Shown: positions 10,456-18,155 of the stretch, one piece after another | How the letters are laid out: each line of letters starts with the position of its first letter | Position numbering within the stretch: the first letter of the stretch is position 1 | Assembly: GCA_045628045.1 (NCBI GenBank) | Contig: JAZQOV010000011.1 | Span: 4,912 to 68,911, forward strand | DNA: 64,000 nucleotides | Direction of reading: 5' to 3' | DNA from: Bacilli bacterium | GTDB taxonomy: Bacteria > Bacillota_I > Bacilli_A > RFN20 > CAG-826 | The notes under the pieces: model-generated | Seen by the model: only the letters and a program-made list of their open reading frames with translations | Databases searched by the model: none | Told to the model about the DNA's origin: nothing | Program-made: the position numbers and the translations under genes

Positions 10456-11802
10456 ATGAAATTTGATCATGTTACTGGAAAGTGCGTTGATCTTTCCTTT
10501 GAAGGGAAAGGCGTTGTAAAGCTTTCGTATGGAACAGTTTTTGTTGATGGCTTATTCCCTGGTGAAGAAGCTGAAATAGAAATTGAATATAAACGTGCTG
10601 GTAATTATTTTGGAAAAGTTTATAGATTAATCACAAAATCTCCAGATAGAATTCAACCAAAATGTGGTGTTTGTACTGCGTGTGGTGGATGTCAACTTCA
10701 ACAACTTTCTTACAATGCTCAACTTGCTTATAAAACTAAAAAAGTAGCAGATGCTTTTAGACGTAATAAAATAGAAAATATTGAGGTTTTTCCGTGTATT
10801 TCAATGGAAAATCCCTATGAATATCGTAATAAAATACAAGTTCCAATTGGTAGAGATCCTCATGGCCATATCGTCTCCGGATTTTATAGAAGTGGCACTC
10901 ACAAAATCATTCCGGTGGACAAATGTTGGATCGAATCAAAGGAAGCACCAAAGATAATTTCTGAAATCAAGAACTTGATGAAGGAATTTCATTATGCTCC
11001 ATATGATGAAGACACAAGAACAGGTCTTATTCGACATGTCTTAATTAGAACTTCACTTCACTATAAAGAAATCATGGTTACTCTTGTTACTAATAAAGAT
11101 GAATTCAAAGGAAAGAATAATTTCGTTAAAGCTTTAGTGAAACGTTGTCCTCAAATTACAAGCATTGTTCAAAACATTAATACGAGAGACACAAATGTAA
11201 TTCTTGGAGAAAAAGAAAGAGTCCTTTTTGGCCCTTCTGTAATTAAGGATTCAATACTTGGCGTTGACTTCTTAATTTCATCAAAATCATTCTTCCAAGT
11301 AAACCCTGTTCAAGTTGAAAATCTATACAAATTCGCCATTAATTTCGCAAATTTAAGCAAAGAAGAGAACATTTTTGATGCTTATTGTGGAATTGGAACA
11401 ATCTCGTTATGCGCATCAAAATATGTTAATAAAGTTGTTGGCGCAGAGATAGTTAAAGAAGCAATTATTGACGCTAAAAAGAACGCTAAATTAAATAATA
11501 TTAATAATGCAACTTTTGTATGCGGAGACGCTGGTGAAGTTTTAGAAACTTTAATTAATAATGGAGAAAAATTCTCGACAGTTTTTGTGGACCCTCCTCG
11601 TAAAGGATTAGATGAAAAATTTATTAAGCATCTTCTTGAGCTTGCTCCATCGAAAATCATTTATGTTTCATGTGATCCGGAAACTTTAGCAAGAGATGTA
11701 AAAATCCTTGCTGAAAAATACGAGATACAACAAGTTCAACCTGTCGACATGTTTCCGATGACATTCCACGTTGAGACTGTTGTTTGTTTATGTCTAAAAT
11801 AA
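10456..11802 (+). CDS. rlmD: 23S rRNA (uracil-C5)-methyltransferase, RumA/RlmD family (TRAM + 4Fe-4S + SAM-dependent methyltransferase)
   Basis: TRAM-like N-terminus. Cys cluster CGVCTACGGCQLQ. SAM-binding DAYCGIGTISL. DPPRKG motif. Catalytic Cys region SCDPETLARD. Confidence 0.8.
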   Translation: MKFDHVTGKCVDLSFEGKGVVKLSYGTVFVDGLFPGEEAEIEIEYKRAGNYFGKVYRLITKSPDRIQPKCGVCTACGGCQLQQLSYNAQLAYKTKKVADAFRRNKIENIEVFPCISMENPYEYRNKIQVPIGRDPHGHIVSGFYRSGTHKIIPVDKCWIESKEAPKIISEIKNLMKEFHYAPYDEDTRTGLIRHVLIRTSLHYKEIMVTLVTNKDEFKGKNNFVKALVKRCPQITSIVQNINTRDTNVILGEKERVLFGPSVIKDSILGVDFLISSKSFFQVNPVQVENLYKFAINFANLSKEENIFDAYCGIGTISLCASKYVNKVVGAEIVKEAIIDAKKNAKLNNINNATFVCGDAGEVLETLINNGEKFSTVFVDPPRKGLDEKFIKHLLELAPSKIIYVSCDPETLARDVKILAEKYEIQQVQPVDMFPMTFHVETVVCLCLK

Positions 11803-11826
11803 CGATGCATTCTCGATGTGTTTTTC

Positions 11827-12711
11827 TTAATTTAATATTGATATATATTTATTCAATCTTTCCAATAAATATTTAGATATAAGTTTTTTCATTGGCTCAA
11901 GATTGTGCTTTAAATGAAATGCATCAAAAGCATCATAATAAGCACGTCTGTCGCTATATTTAATATCAATAGGTGGGAATCCTTGTTTCATTAATTCTAG
12001 ATTTAATAAGAGCCTTCCAGTTCTTCCGTTTCCATCAATAAAAGGGTGAATTGCTTCAAATTCAATATGGAATCTTGCTAATTTTGTAACAATATCTTCA
12101 TTAGATGTATTGTAGTTACAAATTAATTCATTCATTTTTGGTTCAATAGCATACGGTTGAACAGGTGTATGCTTTGAGCCCATTATTCTGACAGGGACCC
12201 TTCTGTAAACCCCTTTGTCTTGAGGTTGATCAGATAAAACCAAGGCATGTATTTGTTTAATTATACTTTCACCAATTTCAGTGTTTTCTTTCACTAAGTC
12301 GCATATAAAATCAAACGCTTCTTTGTGGCCAACAACTTCGAGATGATCTTTTAATGGTTTTTTGTCAATGGTAAGACCTCTTAGAACCATATCCGTTTCT
12401 CTTAGTGTTAATGTATTACCTTCGATGGCGTTGCTGTTATATGTGAACTCTACAACGAATTCCTCATTTAATCTTTTAATTTCGCCAGGCGTTAATGGCC
12501 TTTTAGAATCTAATATATTTTTAAGTTCTAAAATTTTGGATAAATAGTTTTCGTTGTTTTTGATTCTGCCATCAATTGGTTTTACGGCATCATCTGGTAT
12601 AAACCACGTTTTTCCATACAATTCTGCTCCATCAATTTTGCCTTCTGCACAAAGAATGCGAATCCTTCTGTCAGATATATTCCATTTTAGACTAGCTTCT
12701 TTAGTATTCAT
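11827..12711 (-). CDS. fic: Fic-family AMPylation (adenylyltransferase) protein, class II (N-terminal inhibitory helix)
   Basis: Canonical Fic motif HPFIDGNGRTGR. Inhibitory motif SNAIEGN ([ST]xxxE[GN]). The N-terminal 45 aa look like a small DNA-binding domain. RBS GGAGG 9 nt upstream of ATG. Confidence 0.85.
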   Translation of the reverse strand: MNTKEASLKWNISDRRIRILCAEGKIDGAELYGKTWFIPDDAVKPIDGRIKNNENYLSKILELKNILDSKRPLTPGEIKRLNEEFVVEFTYNSNAIEGNTLTLRETDMVLRGLTIDKKPLKDHLEVVGHKEAFDFICDLVKENTEIGESIIKQIHALVLSDQPQDKGVYRRVPVRIMGSKHTPVQPYAIEPKMNELICNYNTSNEDIVTKLARFHIEFEAIHPFIDGNGRTGRLLLNLELMKQGFPPIDIKYSDRRAYYDAFDAFHLKHNLEPMKKLISKYLLERLNKYISILN

Positions 12712-12730
12712 TATCGATTGCCTCCGACTT

Positions 12731-12790
12731 TATCGGAATAATAATAACACATATCGGAATAATAATAAAGCAATATCGGAATAATATTAA
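12731..12790. repeat. Three direct repeats TATCGGAATAATAAT(A) with 21-22-nt period, immediately upstream of the minus-strand fic start
   Basis: Copies at 12731-12747, 12752-12768 and 12774-12790 seen directly. They lie in the -10..-70 region relative to the fic ATG. Confidence 0.7.
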
Positions 12791-12982
12791 AAATGTGTTT
12801 TTGTTTCACGATTATAACGATTTGGGATACGTACCTAATTTGTTACACCAAAAGTGTAACCGCGTGTATCGGTGACTAGTAGTAACACGTGATTACAAGT
12901 GACATGTTTGTTAACATCGAGGTAGGGTTGCAAAAATGTATGTAACACGGTAATAAAATGGTAATGGTTTTCCTATTGTTTT

Positions 12983-13009
12983 TGACAAAAATTTAGTTTC
13001 AGTATAATA
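12983..13009 (+). promoter_or_regulatory. Consensus sigma70-type promoter (TTGACA-15 nt-TATAAT) driving the DUF285 surface-protein gene
   Basis: TTGACA at 12983-12988 and TATAAT at 13004-13009. Confidence 0.55.
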
Positions 13010-13167
13010 CAGTTATATGACAGCCACGTATAGGCAAAACACTAATCATACGTCTTGTTACGGTACATGTGGAGACTGTCGTTTCGTTAATTTTTAAGCA
13101 AAAATAGCAAATTGTTGTTGCTCCCTGCAATTTGACTTTTATATATTGTTTCTTTACAATTCATATT

Positions 13168-15582
13168 ATGAATTACTTTAAAAACATCAGTAAAAACACA
13201 AAAATATTGGCGATTTTGCCGTCATTTTTCTTAACTCTAGTTTCGTTTGTCTCGATAGGACACGACAAAATATCTGAAGTAAAAGCAGAAGAAAATAAGA
13301 TTTTTATAGCAATTGATAGCACAGAAGGAATTGGCTACATTTCGTCTGTCGATAATGATTTAATTCGTGGGACAAATTATTTTTGCGAAGTTGATCCAAC
13401 TTTAACTCGTTCAGCGACAATCTTTTTACAAGATAAATACCAAGGATCCCAAGATTACTTAGGAGACATAAAAAAAGTCGTAATTTTAGATAATGTCGAG
13501 CTTAATAACTGTTCCTTCCTCTTTGGAAATCTCGAAAATCTAGAAACTATTGAGAATTTAGGAAACATTAGTGTTCCAGTATGTTCATCTTTCGAATATA
13601 TGTTCAGTGGTTCTCCAAAATTAAGAGAAGTGGATTTTACAGGTTTTGATGTTTCTAATTGCAGTAGTTTTAAAAACATGTTTTATGACTGTGCACTTGA
13701 AACAATAGATTTATCTGATTTTGACACTTCAAGTTGTGGTGATTTCCACTATATGTTCGATTCATGTCGCAATTTAACATCCTTAGATTTATCTTCTTTT
13801 GATACAAGAAATGCTTCGTCAATGGTAGGCATGTTTTCTGGATGCTCTTCATTAGAATATCTCGATATTTCAAGTTTTGATTTATCAAATAGCCCACGCA
13901 CTGATGAATTTTTATTTGGCACAAAACCAAAAGTTATTGTTGCGCCTAAGTGTGTTCCGGAGCACGCAGTTGATAATATTGTTAAATTTGATCTTCCTCA
14001 AGAAACAGAAGAAAAACCTTACTATTATGATTATGACCTCAACACTTATGAGGAAATGGCTGAATCCAATAAATCTATAACTTATTATCACCACTCATTA
14101 ATACGTACGCTTGAATCTGCGTCGTTTACTTGTTCAAATTCTTTTAAAGAATACGAAGATTTAGATAATTTAGATATTGATGAATTAATTTCGCATTGGG
14201 ACTTCCTTTACGATACGCTTTTTGGATTTCTTCCAAAGAAAGACAATGAACCAATTTACACAATTTTAGAAAAATGCAAGGCTGACACCATCAACGTTGA
14301 AGTAGGAAAATGGCTCACTATTTATGACAAGGTTTATCCACACTATTGCCATGCTTTACAAGAATGTGGTGGAGACTTTTTGAATAGATGTCCAGACGCA
14401 TTAGATCCTGATGGTCTTGTTCATATTGGAGTAAATACAGATGAAAATATTGGTTATCTTTCTTCTTTTGATACCTACGAAATCTTAAAATCTGATTTGC
14501 GAACAAAAGTCGATTTATCCGTGAAAACCATAGGAAATTCAGTATTTTCTCTCTTAGATTCGAATGGATATGAAGATATTACTAAAGTCGTAATTCAAGA
14601 TGAAATTAGTCTTTCGGATTGCTCAAATTTCTTTAAAGGTTTGACCAATCTTGTTTTAATTGATGGAATGAAAAAAGTAAATACTGAGCTCAACACAAAA
14701 TGTATTTCAATGTTTGAGGATTGTTCTAAATTAGAATCTGTTGACTTATCTGCATTTAACACAGAGAAGGTTATTGTTACAGATTGCATGTTTAAAGGAT
14801 GCGTATCGTTAGGAGAAATTACTGGACTTTCTTTCACCTCAAAAACATTAGTTTCTATGTCAGAGATGTTCTCAGGATGCCAAGCCTTAGTATTACTTGA
14901 TTTATCTAGTTATGATTTAACTAACGTAGAAAACACCTTTAATTGTATTTATAATACAACTCCTAATTATATTAAGACTCCAAAAGCGATGCCTACTAAA
15001 GCAAATTGCGATATAGATTTGTATTTCCCTATGGGCATTATAAATTTTGGTTACTACGATTTGTCTTTTGCTACATACACCAAATTACCAAGTATCAATA
15101 GTTCCATTACATTAATTAGTGAAATCGGCAAATATGTCTTAGAAGATTTCTGTGATGATTTTGGTAAAGACACCGCGTATTATTGCGATGCAAACGGAAA
15201 TACAGCAGAAGCAAAATTAATTAGTCTTTGGGAAGGGCAATCTAAGGAATTCAATAAGCACTTTAAAGGTACTCAACACGAATGTTTATTAGAATTCTTT
15301 GGGAAAGATAATTCTTCATGTACTAACACTTCATTGAAGAATTTCTCGGCAAAATATGACTATATTTACGGAAAATACCAATCATTTTTAGATGAACATG
15401 GTGGAGATTTCGCTAATAGATCAAAGCTTATTTCATTCCCAAATAGTTCAGCATTTATTCGTTTCAATCACACTACAAATGAGTCATCTGTTTTAATAAT
15501 TTGTATTATTTCTATTGCTAGCGTTTCAACATTAATTTGTTTAGTGTTTACAAAAAAGCGTATTTCTGCTAAAAGGAAATAA
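13168..15582 (+). CDS. Surface protein with Cys-containing leucine-rich repeats of the DUF285/BspA-like type, N-terminal signal peptide and C-terminal TM anchor
   Basis: Repeated about 26-aa units ...FDTSSCGDFHYMFDSCRNLTSLDLSSFDTRNASSMVGMFSGCSSLEYLDISSFDLSN... C-terminal VLIICIISIASVSTLICLVF + KKRISAKRK. An alternative TTG start at 13132 is in the ORF track. ATG 13168 gives a clean signal peptide, MNYFKNISKNTKILAILPSFFLTLVSFVSIG. Confidence 0.7.
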   Translation: MNYFKNISKNTKILAILPSFFLTLVSFVSIGHDKISEVKAEENKIFIAIDSTEGIGYISSVDNDLIRGTNYFCEVDPTLTRSATIFLQDKYQGSQDYLGDIKKVVILDNVELNNCSFLFGNLENLETIENLGNISVPVCSSFEYMFSGSPKLREVDFTGFDVSNCSSFKNMFYDCALETIDLSDFDTSSCGDFHYMFDSCRNLTSLDLSSFDTRNASSMVGMFSGCSSLEYLDISSFDLSNSPRTDEFLFGTKPKVIVAPKCVPEHAVDNIVKFDLPQETEEKPYYYDYDLNTYEEMAESNKSITYYHHSLIRTLESASFTCSNSFKEYEDLDNLDIDELISHWDFLYDTLFGFLPKKDNEPIYTILEKCKADTINVEVGKWLTIYDKVYPHYCHALQECGGDFLNRCPDALDPDGLVHIGVNTDENIGYLSSFDTYEILKSDLRTKVDLSVKTIGNSVFSLLDSNGYEDITKVVIQDEISLSDCSNFFKGLTNLVLIDGMKKVNTELNTKCISMFEDCSKLESVDLSAFNTEKVIVTDCMFKGCVSLGEITGLSFTSKTLVSMSEMFSGCQALVLLDLSSYDLTNVENTFNCIYNTTPNYIKTPKAMPTKANCDIDLYFPMGIINFGYYDLSFATYTKLPSINSSITLISEIGKYVLEDFCDDFGKDTAYYCDANGNTAEAKLISLWEGQSKEFNKHFKGTQHECLLEFFGKDNSSCTNTSLKNFSAKYDYIYGKYQSFLDEHGGDFANRSKLISFPNSSAFIRFNHTTNESSVLIICIISIASVSTLICLVFTKKRISAKRK

Positions 15583-15607
15583 TTAAGTAATATAGGAGGA
15601 ATAAATA

Positions 15608-16525
15608 ATGAAAAATAACTTTAATAAGGCAGCGTTGTTATTACCAATTATTTTAACTTCGTGTTCTTTAGCGACTTCCGGAGAAAAAGCAAAAAATTTT
15701 TACGACAAAATTTGTGATGAGATAATAGAATTTGGAAACCCTAGAGATGATGATTTTGCTATTTCTTTCAAAGGTCGTTACAAAATTGGTGATGTCGAGA
15801 TTAGAAATATTGACGGCTTTTTCGATGGTAGATTTATAAATATTATTGGTGATTATTATAACGAAAGACTGACCGCAAAATATTATACATTTGATGAACT
15901 AGGCGAAAACGGATTGCCTTATCCATATACTTACTCATCTTTGTTAAATTCAGAAAATGAAACAGTTCTTGTTAGTAGAAGAAAACCATTTGATGGAATA
16001 CAAAATTATTGTGTTTTCCCGGACAAAATTGATGAATATAACGAAATTTACAATAATATTTTTAGAGTTTCGATATGTATAATGGAGTATGGATTATTTG
16101 CTTCTGATCGTTATAGTGAAGAATCGCTCAAACAAGTTTTCTTGTTAGCTGATGAAGAAAGAATTGAATTTGATTTATCAGATCGCGTTAAGTATAGTTA
16201 TGAAAAGAATGAAAATCTTGTTTTTACGATTTCTAGCGATTTAGATTCAATTGGGCCTTTTACTATTCTTTCTCCGGATCAATCAGTCAGATTTGCATAT
16301 TGGAATAAAATGGCAAACGGACCGACAGGAAATTATTGGAAGAAAATCACGGTAGATAAGAAAACATATCAAGTTAAGAAAGTTGAAGTTTCATATAAAG
16401 GAATTGATACAAGATTATTACCAGGCGCGTCGACAGACTTTTATTTTGAATTTGAGCCTCGTGAGCAAAGCACTTCATCTTATAAAGATCAATTTAAGAT
16501 AAGTTGCGATTCATATTTTGATTAA
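15608..16525 (+). CDS. Lipoprotein of unknown function
   Basis: RBS AGGAGGAATAAATA. Signal MKNNFNKAALLLPIILTSCSLA (lipobox LTSC). Confidence 0.7.
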   Translation: MKNNFNKAALLLPIILTSCSLATSGEKAKNFYDKICDEIIEFGNPRDDDFAISFKGRYKIGDVEIRNIDGFFDGRFINIIGDYYNERLTAKYYTFDELGENGLPYPYTYSSLLNSENETVLVSRRKPFDGIQNYCVFPDKIDEYNEIYNNIFRVSICIMEYGLFASDRYSEESLKQVFLLADEERIEFDLSDRVKYSYEKNENLVFTISSDLDSIGPFTILSPDQSVRFAYWNKMANGPTGNYWKKITVDKKTYQVKKVEVSYKGIDTRLLPGASTDFYFEFEPREQSTSSYKDQFKISCDSYFD

Positions 16526-16531
16526 GATAAA

Positions 16532-16560
16532 GCATCCTTAAAAGGATGCATTTTCTTTTT
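16532..16560 (+). terminator. Rho-independent terminator
   Basis: GCATCC(TT)-aaaa-(AA)GGATGC hairpin followed by ATTTTCTTTTT. Confidence 0.7.
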
Positions 16561-16587
16561 AAAAATGGATTTTTAGAAAATAATTAA

Positions 16588-16617
16588 TTGAATCTTTGCA
16601 TCAAAATTAGTTATAAT
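16588..16617 (+). promoter_or_regulatory. Strong sigma70-type promoter, copy 1 of 3 (TTGAAT-18 nt-TATAAT)
   Basis: TTGAAT 16588-16593 and TATAAT 16612-16617. Near-identical copies at 16857-16886 and 17439-17468. Confidence 0.6.
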
Positions 16618-16623
16618 ATTTTT

Positions 16624-16698
16624 ACCACAATACACCTTATGGTGTGATTAGTGATTAAGATCGGTGTTTCGACCGCTTAGTGCGGTGCCGGTCTTTTT
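16624..16698 (+). ncRNA. Candidate about 75-nt small RNA, copy 1 (promoter + hairpins + U-tract terminator)
   Basis: Begins 7-8 nt after the -10. Hairpin ACACC-uuau-GGUGU. Mutually exclusive hairpins CGGU-guuucg-ACCG and ACCGC-uuagu-GCGGU. GACCG...CGGUC followed by UUUUU. The copy-2 substitution (t->c) falls in a loop. Confidence 0.4.
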
Positions 16699-16726
16699 CT
16701 TTCCGGATAAAGTTTATATATTGTAT

Positions 16727-16829
16727 TTTACATAATATTATTCTTTGTTATAATAATGATGCGGTTGCGATAAAAGGCTTATGCCTCGCAGTGCAATTAG
16801 GGCACCTTAATGGCAGCCTTTTTCTTTTT
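16727..16829 (+). ncRNA. Candidate short structured transcript between the two repeat copies
   Basis: Promoter TTTACA-16 nt-TATAAT at 16727-16754. Following about 65 nt are flanked by AAAAGGCU ... AGCCUUUUU long-range complementarity, with an inner hairpin AGGC-uua-UGCCU, ending in a T-tract. Confidence 0.25.
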
Positions 16830-16892
16830 AAAAATAATATTTTAGAAAATAATGAATTGAATTTTTACATCAAAATTAGTTATAATATTTTT

Positions 16893-16968
16893 ACCACAAT
16901 ACACCTTATGGTGTGATTAGTGATAAAGATCGGTGTTTCGACCGCTTAGCGCGGTGCCGGTCTTTTTT
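16893..16968 (+). ncRNA. Candidate about 75-nt small RNA, copy 2. It is antisense to the 3' end of the minus-strand 131-aa ORF.
   Basis: About 95% identical to 16624-16698. Promoter TTGAAT 16857-16862 / TATAAT 16881-16886. T-tract 16963-16968. Overlaps the last ~17 codons of ORF 16917..17312 (-). Confidence 0.4.
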
Positions 16969-17312
16969 CTTTCTAGATAAAGTTCATATATTGTATCTGA
17001 CTTAAGAACATCCTTTTTGGACAACCCCCTTTTTATGTACTTCTCGCTATAGGTTTTCGCAGGGTAACTCCTAATTCTTTGTATAAAATAACTCTGCAAC
17101 GAATTATTTACTTTAAATGGTTTACATAACTTCGTATTTGCCTTGCCTTCCGAATAAGGCTTTGAAGTCAAAAAAACACTTGATAAGATTAGCCCATCTT
17201 TTGTAGCTATAATTGCTTTAATGTGGCCATAATGTCCATGTTTATAATTATAACGAATTTGCCCAATTCTATAATTTCTTCCGATATTGATTTTAATAAT
17301 TTGTTTGCACAT
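16917..17312 (-). CDS. Hypothetical basic 131-aa protein. The C-terminal ~17 codons are encoded by the antisense strand of repeat copy 2.
   Basis: ATG at 17312 is preceded by RBS AAGGAGA (minus strand). The ORF reads through into the repeat. No recognisable domain. Confidence 0.45.
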   Translation of the reverse strand: MCKQIIKINIGRNYRIGQIRYNYKHGHYGHIKAIIATKDGLILSSVFLTSKPYSEGKANTKLCKPFKVNNSLQSYFIQRIRSYPAKTYSEKYIKRGLSKKDVLKSDTIYELYLERKKTGTALSGRNTDLYH

Positions 17313-17330
17313 GTTGTTGTCTCCTTGGGC

Positions 17331-17403
17331 TCAAGAATATTTTACCATCTCTAAAGCAAGCCGATTCCCGTTTTTCATAACATTTTAAAGAACATAGTTC
17401 TTT
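17331..17403 (-). promoter_or_regulatory. Conserved ~73-nt leader, orientation minus. It has the palindrome AAAGAAC-ata-GTTCTTT (17387-17403) and a potential 15-codon uORF (MKNGNRLALEMVKYS, 17378..17331). It is homologous to 51905-51979.
   Basis: About 85% nucleotide identity over about 64 nt with the region upstream of the yhcG-like gene. The palindrome is perfect in both copies. Confidence 0.5.
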
Positions 17404-17438
17404 CTTTTTAAAATTCAACATTTTTAGAAAACAATGAA

Positions 17439-17468
17439 TTGAATTTTTTCATCAAAATTAGTTATAAT
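17439..17468 (+). promoter_or_regulatory. Promoter copy 3 (TTGAAT-18 nt-TATAAT), driving a structured leader and the 85-aa ORF
   Basis: TTGAAT 17439-17444 and TATAAT 17463-17468. Sequence identity to copies 1 and 2 stops 10 nt after the -10. Confidence 0.6.
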
Positions 17469-17474
17469 ATTTTT

Positions 17475-17625
17475 ACCATAAAGAGTACGGCGAGGGACAA
17501 GCCCTATGACCCGTCAGCAACCTGCGTATAGCAAGGTGCTAAAGCTTGACTGATGGTTGTTTTTATTTTATAAGCCGTCAGTATCGATGGCTTTTAATTT
17601 CTTTGTGGTAGATAAGGAGGCTTAT
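17475..17625 (+). promoter_or_regulatory. About 150-nt structured 5' leader (attenuator/riboswitch-like) ending in an intrinsic terminator just before the RBS
   Basis: Nested stem ACGG-cg-AGGG-acaag-CCCU-auga-CCGU. CAACC...GGUUG + UUUUUAUUUU. Terminator hairpin GCCGUC-aguauc-GAUGGC + UUUU (17569-17596). RBS AAGGAGG at 17614-17620. Confidence 0.35.
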
Positions 17626-17880
17626 ATGCCACAGAAAACATTACAAAACGATCTTTACGTAGTCGTTATCTCTTCTAAAGAAGAAAGAGATGAACTTAAA
17701 GCATTATGCGTAAAACATAACATTCCTCTTCTTTATCCAGAGTTATTTAAGGAAGAGGAGATTCATCACTTATGGGGAATCTCTAAAAACGGTGTTGCTT
17801 TAGTGGGCACAATGATTGCAAGACATACACCTAAAGAGAATATATTTCATTCTGTTAAAGAACTGGAATGTATTCTCTAA
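17626..17880 (+). CDS. Hypothetical 85-aa protein (MPQKTLQNDLYVVVISSKEERDEL...)
   Basis: ATG 17626 with a perfect RBS AAGGAGG 6 nt upstream. The track's longer ORF from 17557 would span the leader terminator, so it is rejected. Confidence 0.55.
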   Translation: MPQKTLQNDLYVVVISSKEERDELKALCVKHNIPLLYPELFKEEEIHHLWGISKNGVALVGTMIARHTPKENIFHSVKELECIL

Positions 17881-18155
17881 TATCTTTTCTTGATAGAGAA
17901 GCGTAAGCAAGTTCTCGTATAACAAGAAAAGTGCGCTAAATTTCAATCCTTAAATGTCTATTAAATTAGCATCACGGTTAACACTTGCTCGTATTTACTA
18001 GGGGAAGCGGTAGTTATCTTTTCTTAAATTGCGCTATTTCCTGCCAATAAACAAGACTGGTTGTATTGGCTTTTTGTGTACTAAGAAAAGCAAATTTCGA
18101 TATTGAAATACTGCATATTTTTTAGTAAAATATATTCAGTAAAAGAAAGGTTAAT

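Follow-up and report, generated by a model that had tools for sequence, protein, structure and literature searches.

A putative type I-like toxin–antitoxin module in a Bacilli genome combines a 3′-overlapping antisense hairpin RNA with a protein of predicted MazF/CcdB/ToxN-like fold

A 64,000-nucleotide (nt) stretch of contig JAZQOV010000011.1 (hereafter the window), from a Bacilli bacterium of the GTDB group CAG-826 (assembly GCA_045628045.1), carries a minus-strand gene for a basic protein of 131 amino acids (aa) and, on the opposite strand, a hairpin RNA unit of about 75 nt that points into the 3′ end of this gene. With moderate confidence, the RNA unit and the 131-aa gene are taken to be a type I-like cis-antisense toxin–antitoxin (TA) module, the toxin of which would have a MazF/CcdB/ToxN-like fold. 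A type I TA or cis-antisense reading had been raised in the initial annotation of this DNA, and it is upheld by a convergent promoter, hairpin and U-tract at the 3′ end of every readable homologue and by the toxin-like predicted fold. The parts of the putative module, in window positions, are the following:

16838–16892, plus strand: promoter module copy 2, with the −35 box at 16857–16862 and the −10 box at 16881–16886.
16893–16968, plus strand: predicted antisense small RNA (sRNA) copy 2, the candidate antitoxin, with a 5′ hairpin (16895–16922), a terminator hairpin (16925–16965) and a U-tract of six residues (U6).
16917–17312, minus strand: gene for the 131-aa basic protein, a candidate toxin with a predicted β-barrel and C-terminal helix (MazF/CcdB/ToxN fold).
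17313–17402, minus strand: 5′ untranslated region (UTR) of the 131-aa gene, with ribosome-binding site (RBS) AAGGAG and a candidate extended −10 promoter, TGGTAAAAT.

The copy 2 RNA is complementary to the last 17 codons and the stop codon of the 131-aa gene, in agreement with the antisense overlap described in the initial annotation, and it is kept in a related strain (L001) and in loci L002 and L003. Ten independent loci of the gene family were readable (the window, L002, L003, L004, L010, L011, L012, L014, L016 and L017). In all ten, the strand opposite the gene carries a hairpin and U-tract that point into the open reading frame (ORF) and overlap or abut its stop codon, and in all ten a −10 box precedes this hairpin. 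A scripted detector found the unit in 10/10 family loci but in only 5/27 long control ORFs of the window. An exact TATAAT is present in eight of the ten loci, usually 6–7 nt upstream of the hairpin, compared to one of the 27 controls. Full antisense promoters score 10–12 out of 12 in six loci, where the local chance expectation is 0.03–0.2 per site:

L011: TTGACA-17-TATAAT
L004: TTGATA-17-TATAAT
L002: TTTACA-16-TATAAT
L010: TTTACA-17-TATATT
L012: TTGATT-18-TATAAT
Window: TTGAAT-18-TATAAT

The antisense promoters of L014 and L017 score 9/12, and in L003 the contig ends within the corresponding region. The sense strand has no U-tract after the hairpin (for example, in L011), and the hairpin is therefore predicted to terminate the antisense transcript and not the mRNA.

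Distant loci have RNAs of unrelated sequence, but these all share a folded architecture that consists of an outer stem of 6–10 bp, an internal loop of 5–7 nt on the 5′ side, an inner stem-loop and a U-tract. In L012, a small extra hairpin takes the place of the 5′-side internal loop, and in distant homologues the RNA is reduced to a terminator hairpin of 45–55 nt. The additional 5′ hairpin of the window and its clade has the same shape with different stems (ACACC/GGUGU in the window, GCAUU/AAUGC in L002 and ACCGC/GCGGU in L003), and between the window and L002 both partners are changed in three of the five inner pairs.

Within the window, the promoter belongs to a 62-nt module that is present in exactly three copies (16588–16626, 16857–16895 and 17439–17477; none expected by chance), each with the TTGAAT-18-TATAAT arrangement (10/12 match), so that the threefold promoter first described in the initial annotation is borne out for the entire 64 kb. 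Two of these copies lie within a longer repeated unit of 155 nt. This unit does occur twice, at 93% identity (146/157 columns) and not the ~95% first given; the transcribed part is 96% identical (73/76), and homology between the long copies spans ~16544–16726 and 16813–16996 in the alignment. The third promoter copy is 92% identical to the other two. Both RNAs are predicted to start with ACCA, 7 nt after the −10 box, and to fold into a 5′ hairpin, followed by a terminator hairpin in two tiers (an outer stem and an inner stem-loop, separated by a 6-nt loop that is confined to the 5′ side) and the U-tract. Folding had been proposed as a check, and both RNAs are stable, with energies of −28.7 kcal/mol for copy 1 and −28.9 kcal/mol for copy 2 (z −4.3 and −5.0); none of 200 shuffled sequences was equally stable in either case.

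The transcripts of the two copies differ at three places, where a single difference had been reported: T/A at 16656/16925 in the linker, T/C at 16681/16950 in the apical loop (the former previously placed at 16678), and U5 versus U6 in the length of the U-tract. The loop substitution had been taken as a sign of structural constraint, but this argument is weak, since the copies are recent duplicates and their differences say little on constraint. Structural evidence for the RNA is instead provided by the sequences of the diverged loci L002 and L003. No Rfam family was found for the ~75-nt RNAs, or for a further unit that lies between them, in the region 15000–19500 at E-values up to 10, and the conserved terminator core, searched as an exact pattern, had no matches in GTDB genomes or JGI metagenomes. 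The earlier statement that no known family is matched thus holds for the ~75-nt units, although not for the unit downstream of the third promoter, which is a SAM-I riboswitch (see below).

The overlap between RNA and ORF is reflected in the pattern of codon change. The window, L002 and L003 were compared in all three pairs, and synonymous differences were counted at those codons that specify the same amino acid in both sequences. They amount to 45–52% in codons 1–113, where nucleotide identity is 67–73%. In the last 18 codons, which form the overlap, they fall to 0–6%, with a nucleotide identity of 89–91% (overlap versus upstream, Fisher p 2e-4 to 1e-3). The last ~13 residues of the protein, encoded antisense to the RNA hairpin, are predicted to be disordered; the C-terminal tail varies in length between homologues, and its conserved KK motif is the reverse complement of the RNA U-tract. 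The frozen synonymous sites, the disordered and variable tail and the origin of the KK motif all indicate that the RNA dictates this part of the ORF.

The 131-aa ORF is a real gene, since two metagenomic homologues, with 78% and 71% aa identity, show abundant synonymous changes across the ORF. The best minus-strand promoter candidates for the gene score 9/12, and TGGTAAAAT is probably a weak extended −10 promoter. A profile search of 1.8 billion representative proteins yielded 12 further, more distant relatives, and a second search, of 5.8 billion clusters, yielded 13. The family is very rare, with about 15 sequence clusters, mostly on short metagenomic contigs, and protein lengths of 92–173 aa. 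Common motifs are IR[FY]N[FY]KH.H.GH.K, TSVF.SSK, NIPM.KP, SYFI.RVRTYP..TYS and LS.KD..S..IY..L..KK. Nothing significant was found for the family in Pfam, PHROGs, PADLOC, NCBIfam or PDB sequence searches, none of the 15 members matched Pfam or NCBIfam models (including PemK/MazF), and none of the database sources names the 131-aa protein. Protein-guided scans of GTDB genomes, JGI metagenomes and IMG/VR gave no matches, nor did tblastn against PLSDB plasmids and INPHARED phages. Five family members (P0006, P0009, P0011, P0018 and P0019 in alignment A2) have a hydrophobic, transmembrane-like segment at the N-terminus, which is missing from the window protein; many of the other members start with MC.

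Structure prediction from three sequences was too poor to use (pLDDT 52), and the model discussed here is an AlphaFold prediction from 15 sequences (pLDDT 86.1, pTM 0.79). It consists of a β-barrel followed by a helix at residues 99–118. The best and longest structural matches, with 85–107 residues aligned and the C-terminal helix included, are to MazF, CptN, Kid and CcdB. The match scores are 8.2 for MazF7, 8.1 for MazF6, 8.0 for MazF4, 8.0 for the type III toxin CptN (107 residues aligned), 6.8 for Kid, 6.2 for CcdB and 5.0 for AbiQ, while generic SH3-like barrels (Tudor, KOW, BAH) score 5–6 over shorter alignments. Foldseek searches against the PDB and viral models likewise placed MazF/PemK toxins among the top-scoring matches, with a probability of up to 1.00. 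Sequence identity to the structural matches is 7–16%. In hhalign profile comparisons, no similarity was found to ToxN or to Escherichia coli MazF (probability 0.2% for the latter). Judged from its predicted fold, the 131-aa protein looks like an RNA-cutting toxin of the MazF/ToxN type.

In the proposed mechanism, a short antisense RNA with its own strong sigma-70-type promoter and its own terminator would converge on the 131-aa gene and be transcribed into its 3′ end. The toxin mRNA would be weakly expressed, and this abundant RNA would base-pair with its 3′ end over ~50–75 nt, pairing being nucleated by the complementary loops of the mirror-image hairpins. The duplex would then be degraded, for example by RNase III, or otherwise silenced, and little toxin would be made while the RNA is present. 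Copy 2 (16893–16968) would be the working partner of the intact gene. Three elements of this scheme, namely transcription of the RNA, toxicity of the protein and control at the level of the mRNA, are what we infer from these data.

Several points weigh against the proposed module. At 131 aa, the protein greatly exceeds the usual size of type I toxins, and it is not hydrophobic. Its toxicity is deduced solely from a predicted fold at the low identities given above, with no sequence-level link to MazF or ToxN, and the N-terminal membrane helix of several homologues would be unusual for MazF-like RNases. The promoters and terminators are consensus predictions, from which transcription is deduced; the −35 elements are weak or moderate in two loci, and the L016 promoter is poor. 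Furthermore, the results do not separate control at the mRNA level from control at the protein level. The main limits are thus the small family, the predicted structure behind the toxin assignment and the predicted nature of the transcription.

If control acted at the protein level, the system would be type III-like, the hairpin RNA neutralizing the toxin by binding to it and possibly being cleaved by it, with the overlap incidental or an added layer. All the RNAs have a two-tier hairpin with a 5′-side internal loop, a possible protein-binding shape, the orphan RNA copy 1 has been kept intact, and an interaction of this kind, alone or additional, is attractive given the predicted fold. However, type III systems have a tandem repeat array and a terminator upstream of the toxin (PMC3401426), and neither is present here: TRF found no tandem repeats in 15500–18500, and none were seen upstream of the gene in the other loci. 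There is no sequence similarity to ToxN either. Type I-like control is favored because the antisense overlap, needless for an RNA that only binds protein, is kept in all ten loci, and a purely type III-like system is considered rather unlikely. A hybrid is conceivable, though doubtful, in which a MazF/ToxN-fold endoribonuclease is held in check by one convergent hairpin RNA that serves both as antisense RNA (type I) and as a bound or cut ligand (type III). The conserved 5′-side internal loop of the hairpin would then be the protein contact, and orphan RNAs such as copy 1 would be anti-addiction or immunity elements against incoming modules.

The gene might also be non-toxic and simply tuned by an ordinary cis-antisense RNA, its product being a small basic protein that binds RNA or DNA and has an SH3-like barrel. 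This has a small but real probability, as the protein has no sequence-level link to any toxin family and some homologues reside inside operon-like arrays of small genes. Against it stand the consistency with which MazF, CptN, Kid and CcdB are the best and longest structural matches, the patchy and mobile-looking distribution of the family and the location of the window copy in a TA-rich island. In addition, a strong, constitutive-looking RNA promoter opposite a weak gene promoter would correspond to the usual TA arrangement. Much less probable is an inert repeat or plain bidirectional terminator, made up of recombination scars and chance promoter matches in AT-rich DNA. The similarity of the window copies, being recent duplicates, proves nothing by itself, and promoter-like sites are no commoner in the region than in shuffled sequence (17 versus 15.5 expected). 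However, divergent loci, some of them richer in GC, have near-consensus promoters at an identical offset, with the chance expectations given above. On the antisense strand, the hairpin always has the U-tract behind it, within the ORF; the unit is far commoner in family loci than in controls, and synonymous sites are frozen in the overlap. The initial annotation had also offered orphan riboswitch or attenuator leaders, through which a downstream gene would respond to a ligand or protein. This is hardly credible for copies 1 and 2 and was rejected. The layout of promoter, structured RNA and terminator is suggestive, and a true riboswitch, at a distance of 580 nt, has this promoter module as well, but no same-strand ORF follows either copy, and copy 2 runs into the convergent gene. 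Nor did the Rfam search return a match, and the 45–55-nt terminator hairpin of distant homologues leaves no room for an aptamer.

TA classes are set by the action of the antitoxin, and toxin folds largely track them: type I systems combine membrane peptides with antisense RNAs, type II systems combine toxins of the MazF/CcdB fold with protein antitoxins, and type III systems combine ToxN-like RNases with RNA pseudoknots derived from repeats. The nearest precedent for a large, nuclease-like type I toxin is SymE of E. coli, which is AbrB-like and has no sequence or fold relation to the 131-aa family that could be seen. In the putative module, a separate RNA complementary to the toxin mRNA is present at the sequence level in 10/10 loci, as in type I systems. 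The small (usually <60 aa) hydrophobic membrane peptide of that class is replaced by a basic 131-aa protein with a predicted barrel and helix. SymE/SymR is itself an atypical type I system, with a non-hydrophobic, nuclease-like toxin of 113 aa and a cis-antisense RNA; SymE has unusual homology and is unrelated to MazF, and it is listed with RalR among the exceptions in size and hydrophobicity (PMC4147584). SymR overlaps the 5′ end and RBS of its target and blocks translation, whereas the RNA described here overlaps the 3′ end. In this respect, the closer parallels are txpA/RatA and bsrG/SR4 of Bacillus subtilis, type I systems in which a convergent antitoxin RNA overlaps the 3′ end and acts by duplex formation and mRNA decay (PMC4147584). 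The RNA of the putative module has its own promoter, is convergent and overlaps the 3′ end of the toxin mRNA in the same way, and it would be expected to act by the same route. However, the toxins of these systems are small hydrophobic membrane peptides, unlike the basic proteins of 92–173 aa with a predicted β-barrel found here, and RatA and SR4 are much longer than the present RNAs of 45–76 nt, which are essentially terminator hairpins.

With ToxIN, CptIN and AbiQ/antiQ (type III), the putative module shares the lack of a protein antitoxin, but it has a single convergent antisense hairpin RNA, no repeats and no sequence similarity. The predicted model does have the MazF/CcdB fold of MazEF, PemIK, Kis-Kid and CcdAB (type II). 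Unlike these, the family has no Pfam PemK/MazF match and no adjacent conserved protein antitoxin, the RNA being the only conserved partner. Upstream genes differ between loci, are not homologous and contain no informative domains, and a 42-aa ORF upstream of the 131-aa gene in the window is not conserved in L002 or L003. Full-text literature searches found no description of a MazF/ToxN-type protein paired with a 3′-overlapping antisense RNA; the nearest case, a classical mazEF operon that is modulated by an antisense RNA, is of a different kind (PMC8749433). If correct, a MazF/ToxN-type fold with a 3′-overlapping antisense RNA as its only conserved partner would cut across the TA classes and couple this toxin fold to an antisense-type RNA antitoxin. 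It would also provide a compact module of ~0.6 kb in which to compare neutralization at the mRNA and protein levels. For annotation pipelines, the consequence would be that the last 5–20 codons of a gene, including a conserved C-terminal KK motif, can be dictated by an RNA terminator on the opposite strand.

The window also contains remnants of a second such module, in the region that precedes copy 2:

16532–16559, plus strand: intrinsic terminator of the upstream 305-aa gene (terminator scan and copy alignment), the T-run of which is the left edge of the repeated unit.
16569–16623, plus strand: promoter module copy 1, with an A/T-rich upstream part, −35 box TTGAAT at 16588–16593 and −10 box TATAAT at 16612–16617.
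16624–16698, plus strand: predicted antisense-type sRNA copy 1, an orphan, with a 5′ hairpin, a terminator hairpin (16657–16695) and U5; both ends are predicted.
16648–16726, minus strand: frameshifted 3′ fragment of a second gene of the 131-aa family (alignment with copy 2 and L001; sequence reading).
16727–16829, plus strand: middle unit, with a promoter-like TTTACA-16-TGTTATAAT (16727–16754) and, behind it, ~70 nt that end in a weak hairpin and a U-tract.

The gene fragment at copy 1 (~80 nt) reads ..TIYKLYPERK before the frame shifts through a 1-nt deletion in an A-run, and it has no start codon and no 5′ part. The promoter and RNA of copy 1 are intact. As read from the alignments, copy 1 is an orphan RNA gene beside a degraded second toxin-family gene; it could still be a source of RNA in trans. 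A single RNA copy, equivalent to copy 2, is present in the related strain L001, in the order methyltransferase gene, middle unit, RNA and 131-aa gene. Relative to L001, the window has ~5 kb extra, which holds a Fic gene, a remnant of the methyltransferase 3′ end, a DUF285 gene, the 305-aa gene and copy 1. The Fic/DOC-family gene (11827–12711, minus strand) is inserted at the end of a tRNA/rRNA U5-methyltransferase gene (region 11790–13110), the original 3′ end of which survives as a duplicated remnant at ~13060–13110, as seen by comparison with L001. The interval 13132–16525 contains a DUF285/LRR surface-protein gene (816 aa) and the 305-aa lipoprotein-like gene. Both are absent from L001 and appear to have arrived together with sRNA copy 1.

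The middle unit had been described as another promoter and hairpin unit between the copies. Its promoter-like site is indeed present and scores 11/12, but the hairpin is weak and the fold is no better than that of shuffled sequence (z −0.6). The −35 element derives from the copy 1 junction and is absent in L001, where the middle unit lies directly 3′ of the U5-methyltransferase gene. The middle unit is probably the terminator region of that gene. It was rejected as part of the module on account of its unremarkable fold and its absence from L002 and L003.

The module is found in different neighborhoods. In the window and L001, it lies between the U5-methyltransferase gene and the riboswitch, in L004 between UDG and ychF, and in L012–L016 within arrays of small genes. 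Direct repeats of 62 nt (103–164 and 904–965; 74% identical) lie on either side of it in L002; they are 801 nt apart and could be an insertion or recombination signature. In L019 (3126–3708, minus strand), one or more RhuM-family genes occupy the position of the 131-aa gene behind a homologous 5′ UTR and RBS (window 17319–17400), which suggests a cassette exchange downstream of a fixed promoter. From these comparisons of neighborhoods, repeats and the RhuM swap, the module looks mobile. Its neighbors in the window include two Fic/DOC genes and an HTH-YafQ/ParE pair.

Other features of these loci may be mentioned. The module in the window is bracketed by two of the 62-nt promoter module copies, 582 nt apart. 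Each 62-nt repeat of L002 contains a short ORF starting MKLAKMFE, and L002 1–75, next to the module, resembles the 3′ portion of a tRNA gene, with a long arm and a terminal CCA, that is cut by the contig end; ARAGORN reported no tRNA there, presumably owing to this truncation. The L019 contig also carries an MNT/HepT pair, a serine recombinase, NERD genes and a transposase. In L012, the start of the toxin homologue is overlapped by a gene (195–1796) for a 533-aa protein with a P-loop (GGGKTS) and N-terminal membrane segments, and judging from its gene content, this contig of small genes may be a filamentous-phage-like or plasmid-like element. In the window, an XRE-type HTH gene overlaps a YafQ/ParE-family toxin gene (19725–20605) in what looks like a type II TA pair, with a Fic gene (18156–19214) just upstream; the region is a TA-rich variable island.

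The third copy of the promoter module precedes a riboswitch and its gene:

17420–17474, plus strand: promoter module copy 3, with the −35 box at 17439–17444 and the −10 box at 17463–17468.
17473–17559, plus strand: SAM-I riboswitch aptamer (RF00162), 51.8 bits versus a gathering score of 44.4.
17550–17603, plus strand: riboswitch expression platform, with a terminator hairpin (17572–17593) and a U-rich tail.
17626–17880, plus strand: 84-aa ORF, predicted to be controlled by the SAM riboswitch.

The structured leader and ORF that the initial annotation had placed behind this promoter are both present, but the leader belongs to a known family. No Rfam family other than SAM exceeds its threshold in the 64 kb, and SAM was also the sole match at the gathering threshold when nine loci were included. 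Like other SAM-I (S-box) riboswitches, the third unit scores above threshold and has the P1–P3 core, which aligns well, and a typical OFF-switch platform. It differs in that P4 is almost absent, 18 model positions being replaced by 1 nt, and in that its gene encodes the 84-aa protein and not a recognized sulfur or methionine protein. The antiterminator is formed by pairing of CUGAUGGUU with AGCCGUCAG, and in the ligand-free minimum free energy fold the 3′ strand of P1 is paired with the 5′ strand of the terminator. By its predicted pairing, the terminator/antiterminator layout is that of the usual OFF switch.

The 84-aa ORF has no Pfam domain and only a few metagenomic relatives. The riboswitch–ORF pair recurs in L019 (54.0 bits) and L010 (45.9 bits), and in all three places a SAM-I switch with little P4 precedes a conserved protein of 81–99 aa for which no known domain was found (window 17473–17880; L019 3887–4300; L010 2965–3374, minus strand). 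In L019, another promoter precedes the riboswitch, and ACCATAAAGAG is the exact point from which the sequence is again homologous to the window. Promoter module copy 3 is absent from this orthologous locus and is therefore a lineage-specific replacement that indicates no shared function with the hairpin RNAs.

Two conserved non-coding segments, A and B, follow the 84-aa gene in the window (17885–18030, plus strand). Neither has an Rfam match. Segment A (GATAGAGAAGCGTAAGCAAGTTCTCGTA) lies in a hairpin, the outer stem of which covaries among four copies (CUUUUCUUG/CAAGAAAAG, CUUUUCUAG/CUGGGAAAG and GCUUUUUUG/CAAAAAGGC), and segment B (CATCACGGTTAACACTT..) is a hairpin with a U-tract. Both segments are repeated around a Sel1 gene in L010 (1318–1426, 2569–2671 and 2901–2967, minus strand), and from their sequence and predicted structure they may be an undescribed repeated structured element of 3′ UTRs or intergenic regions.

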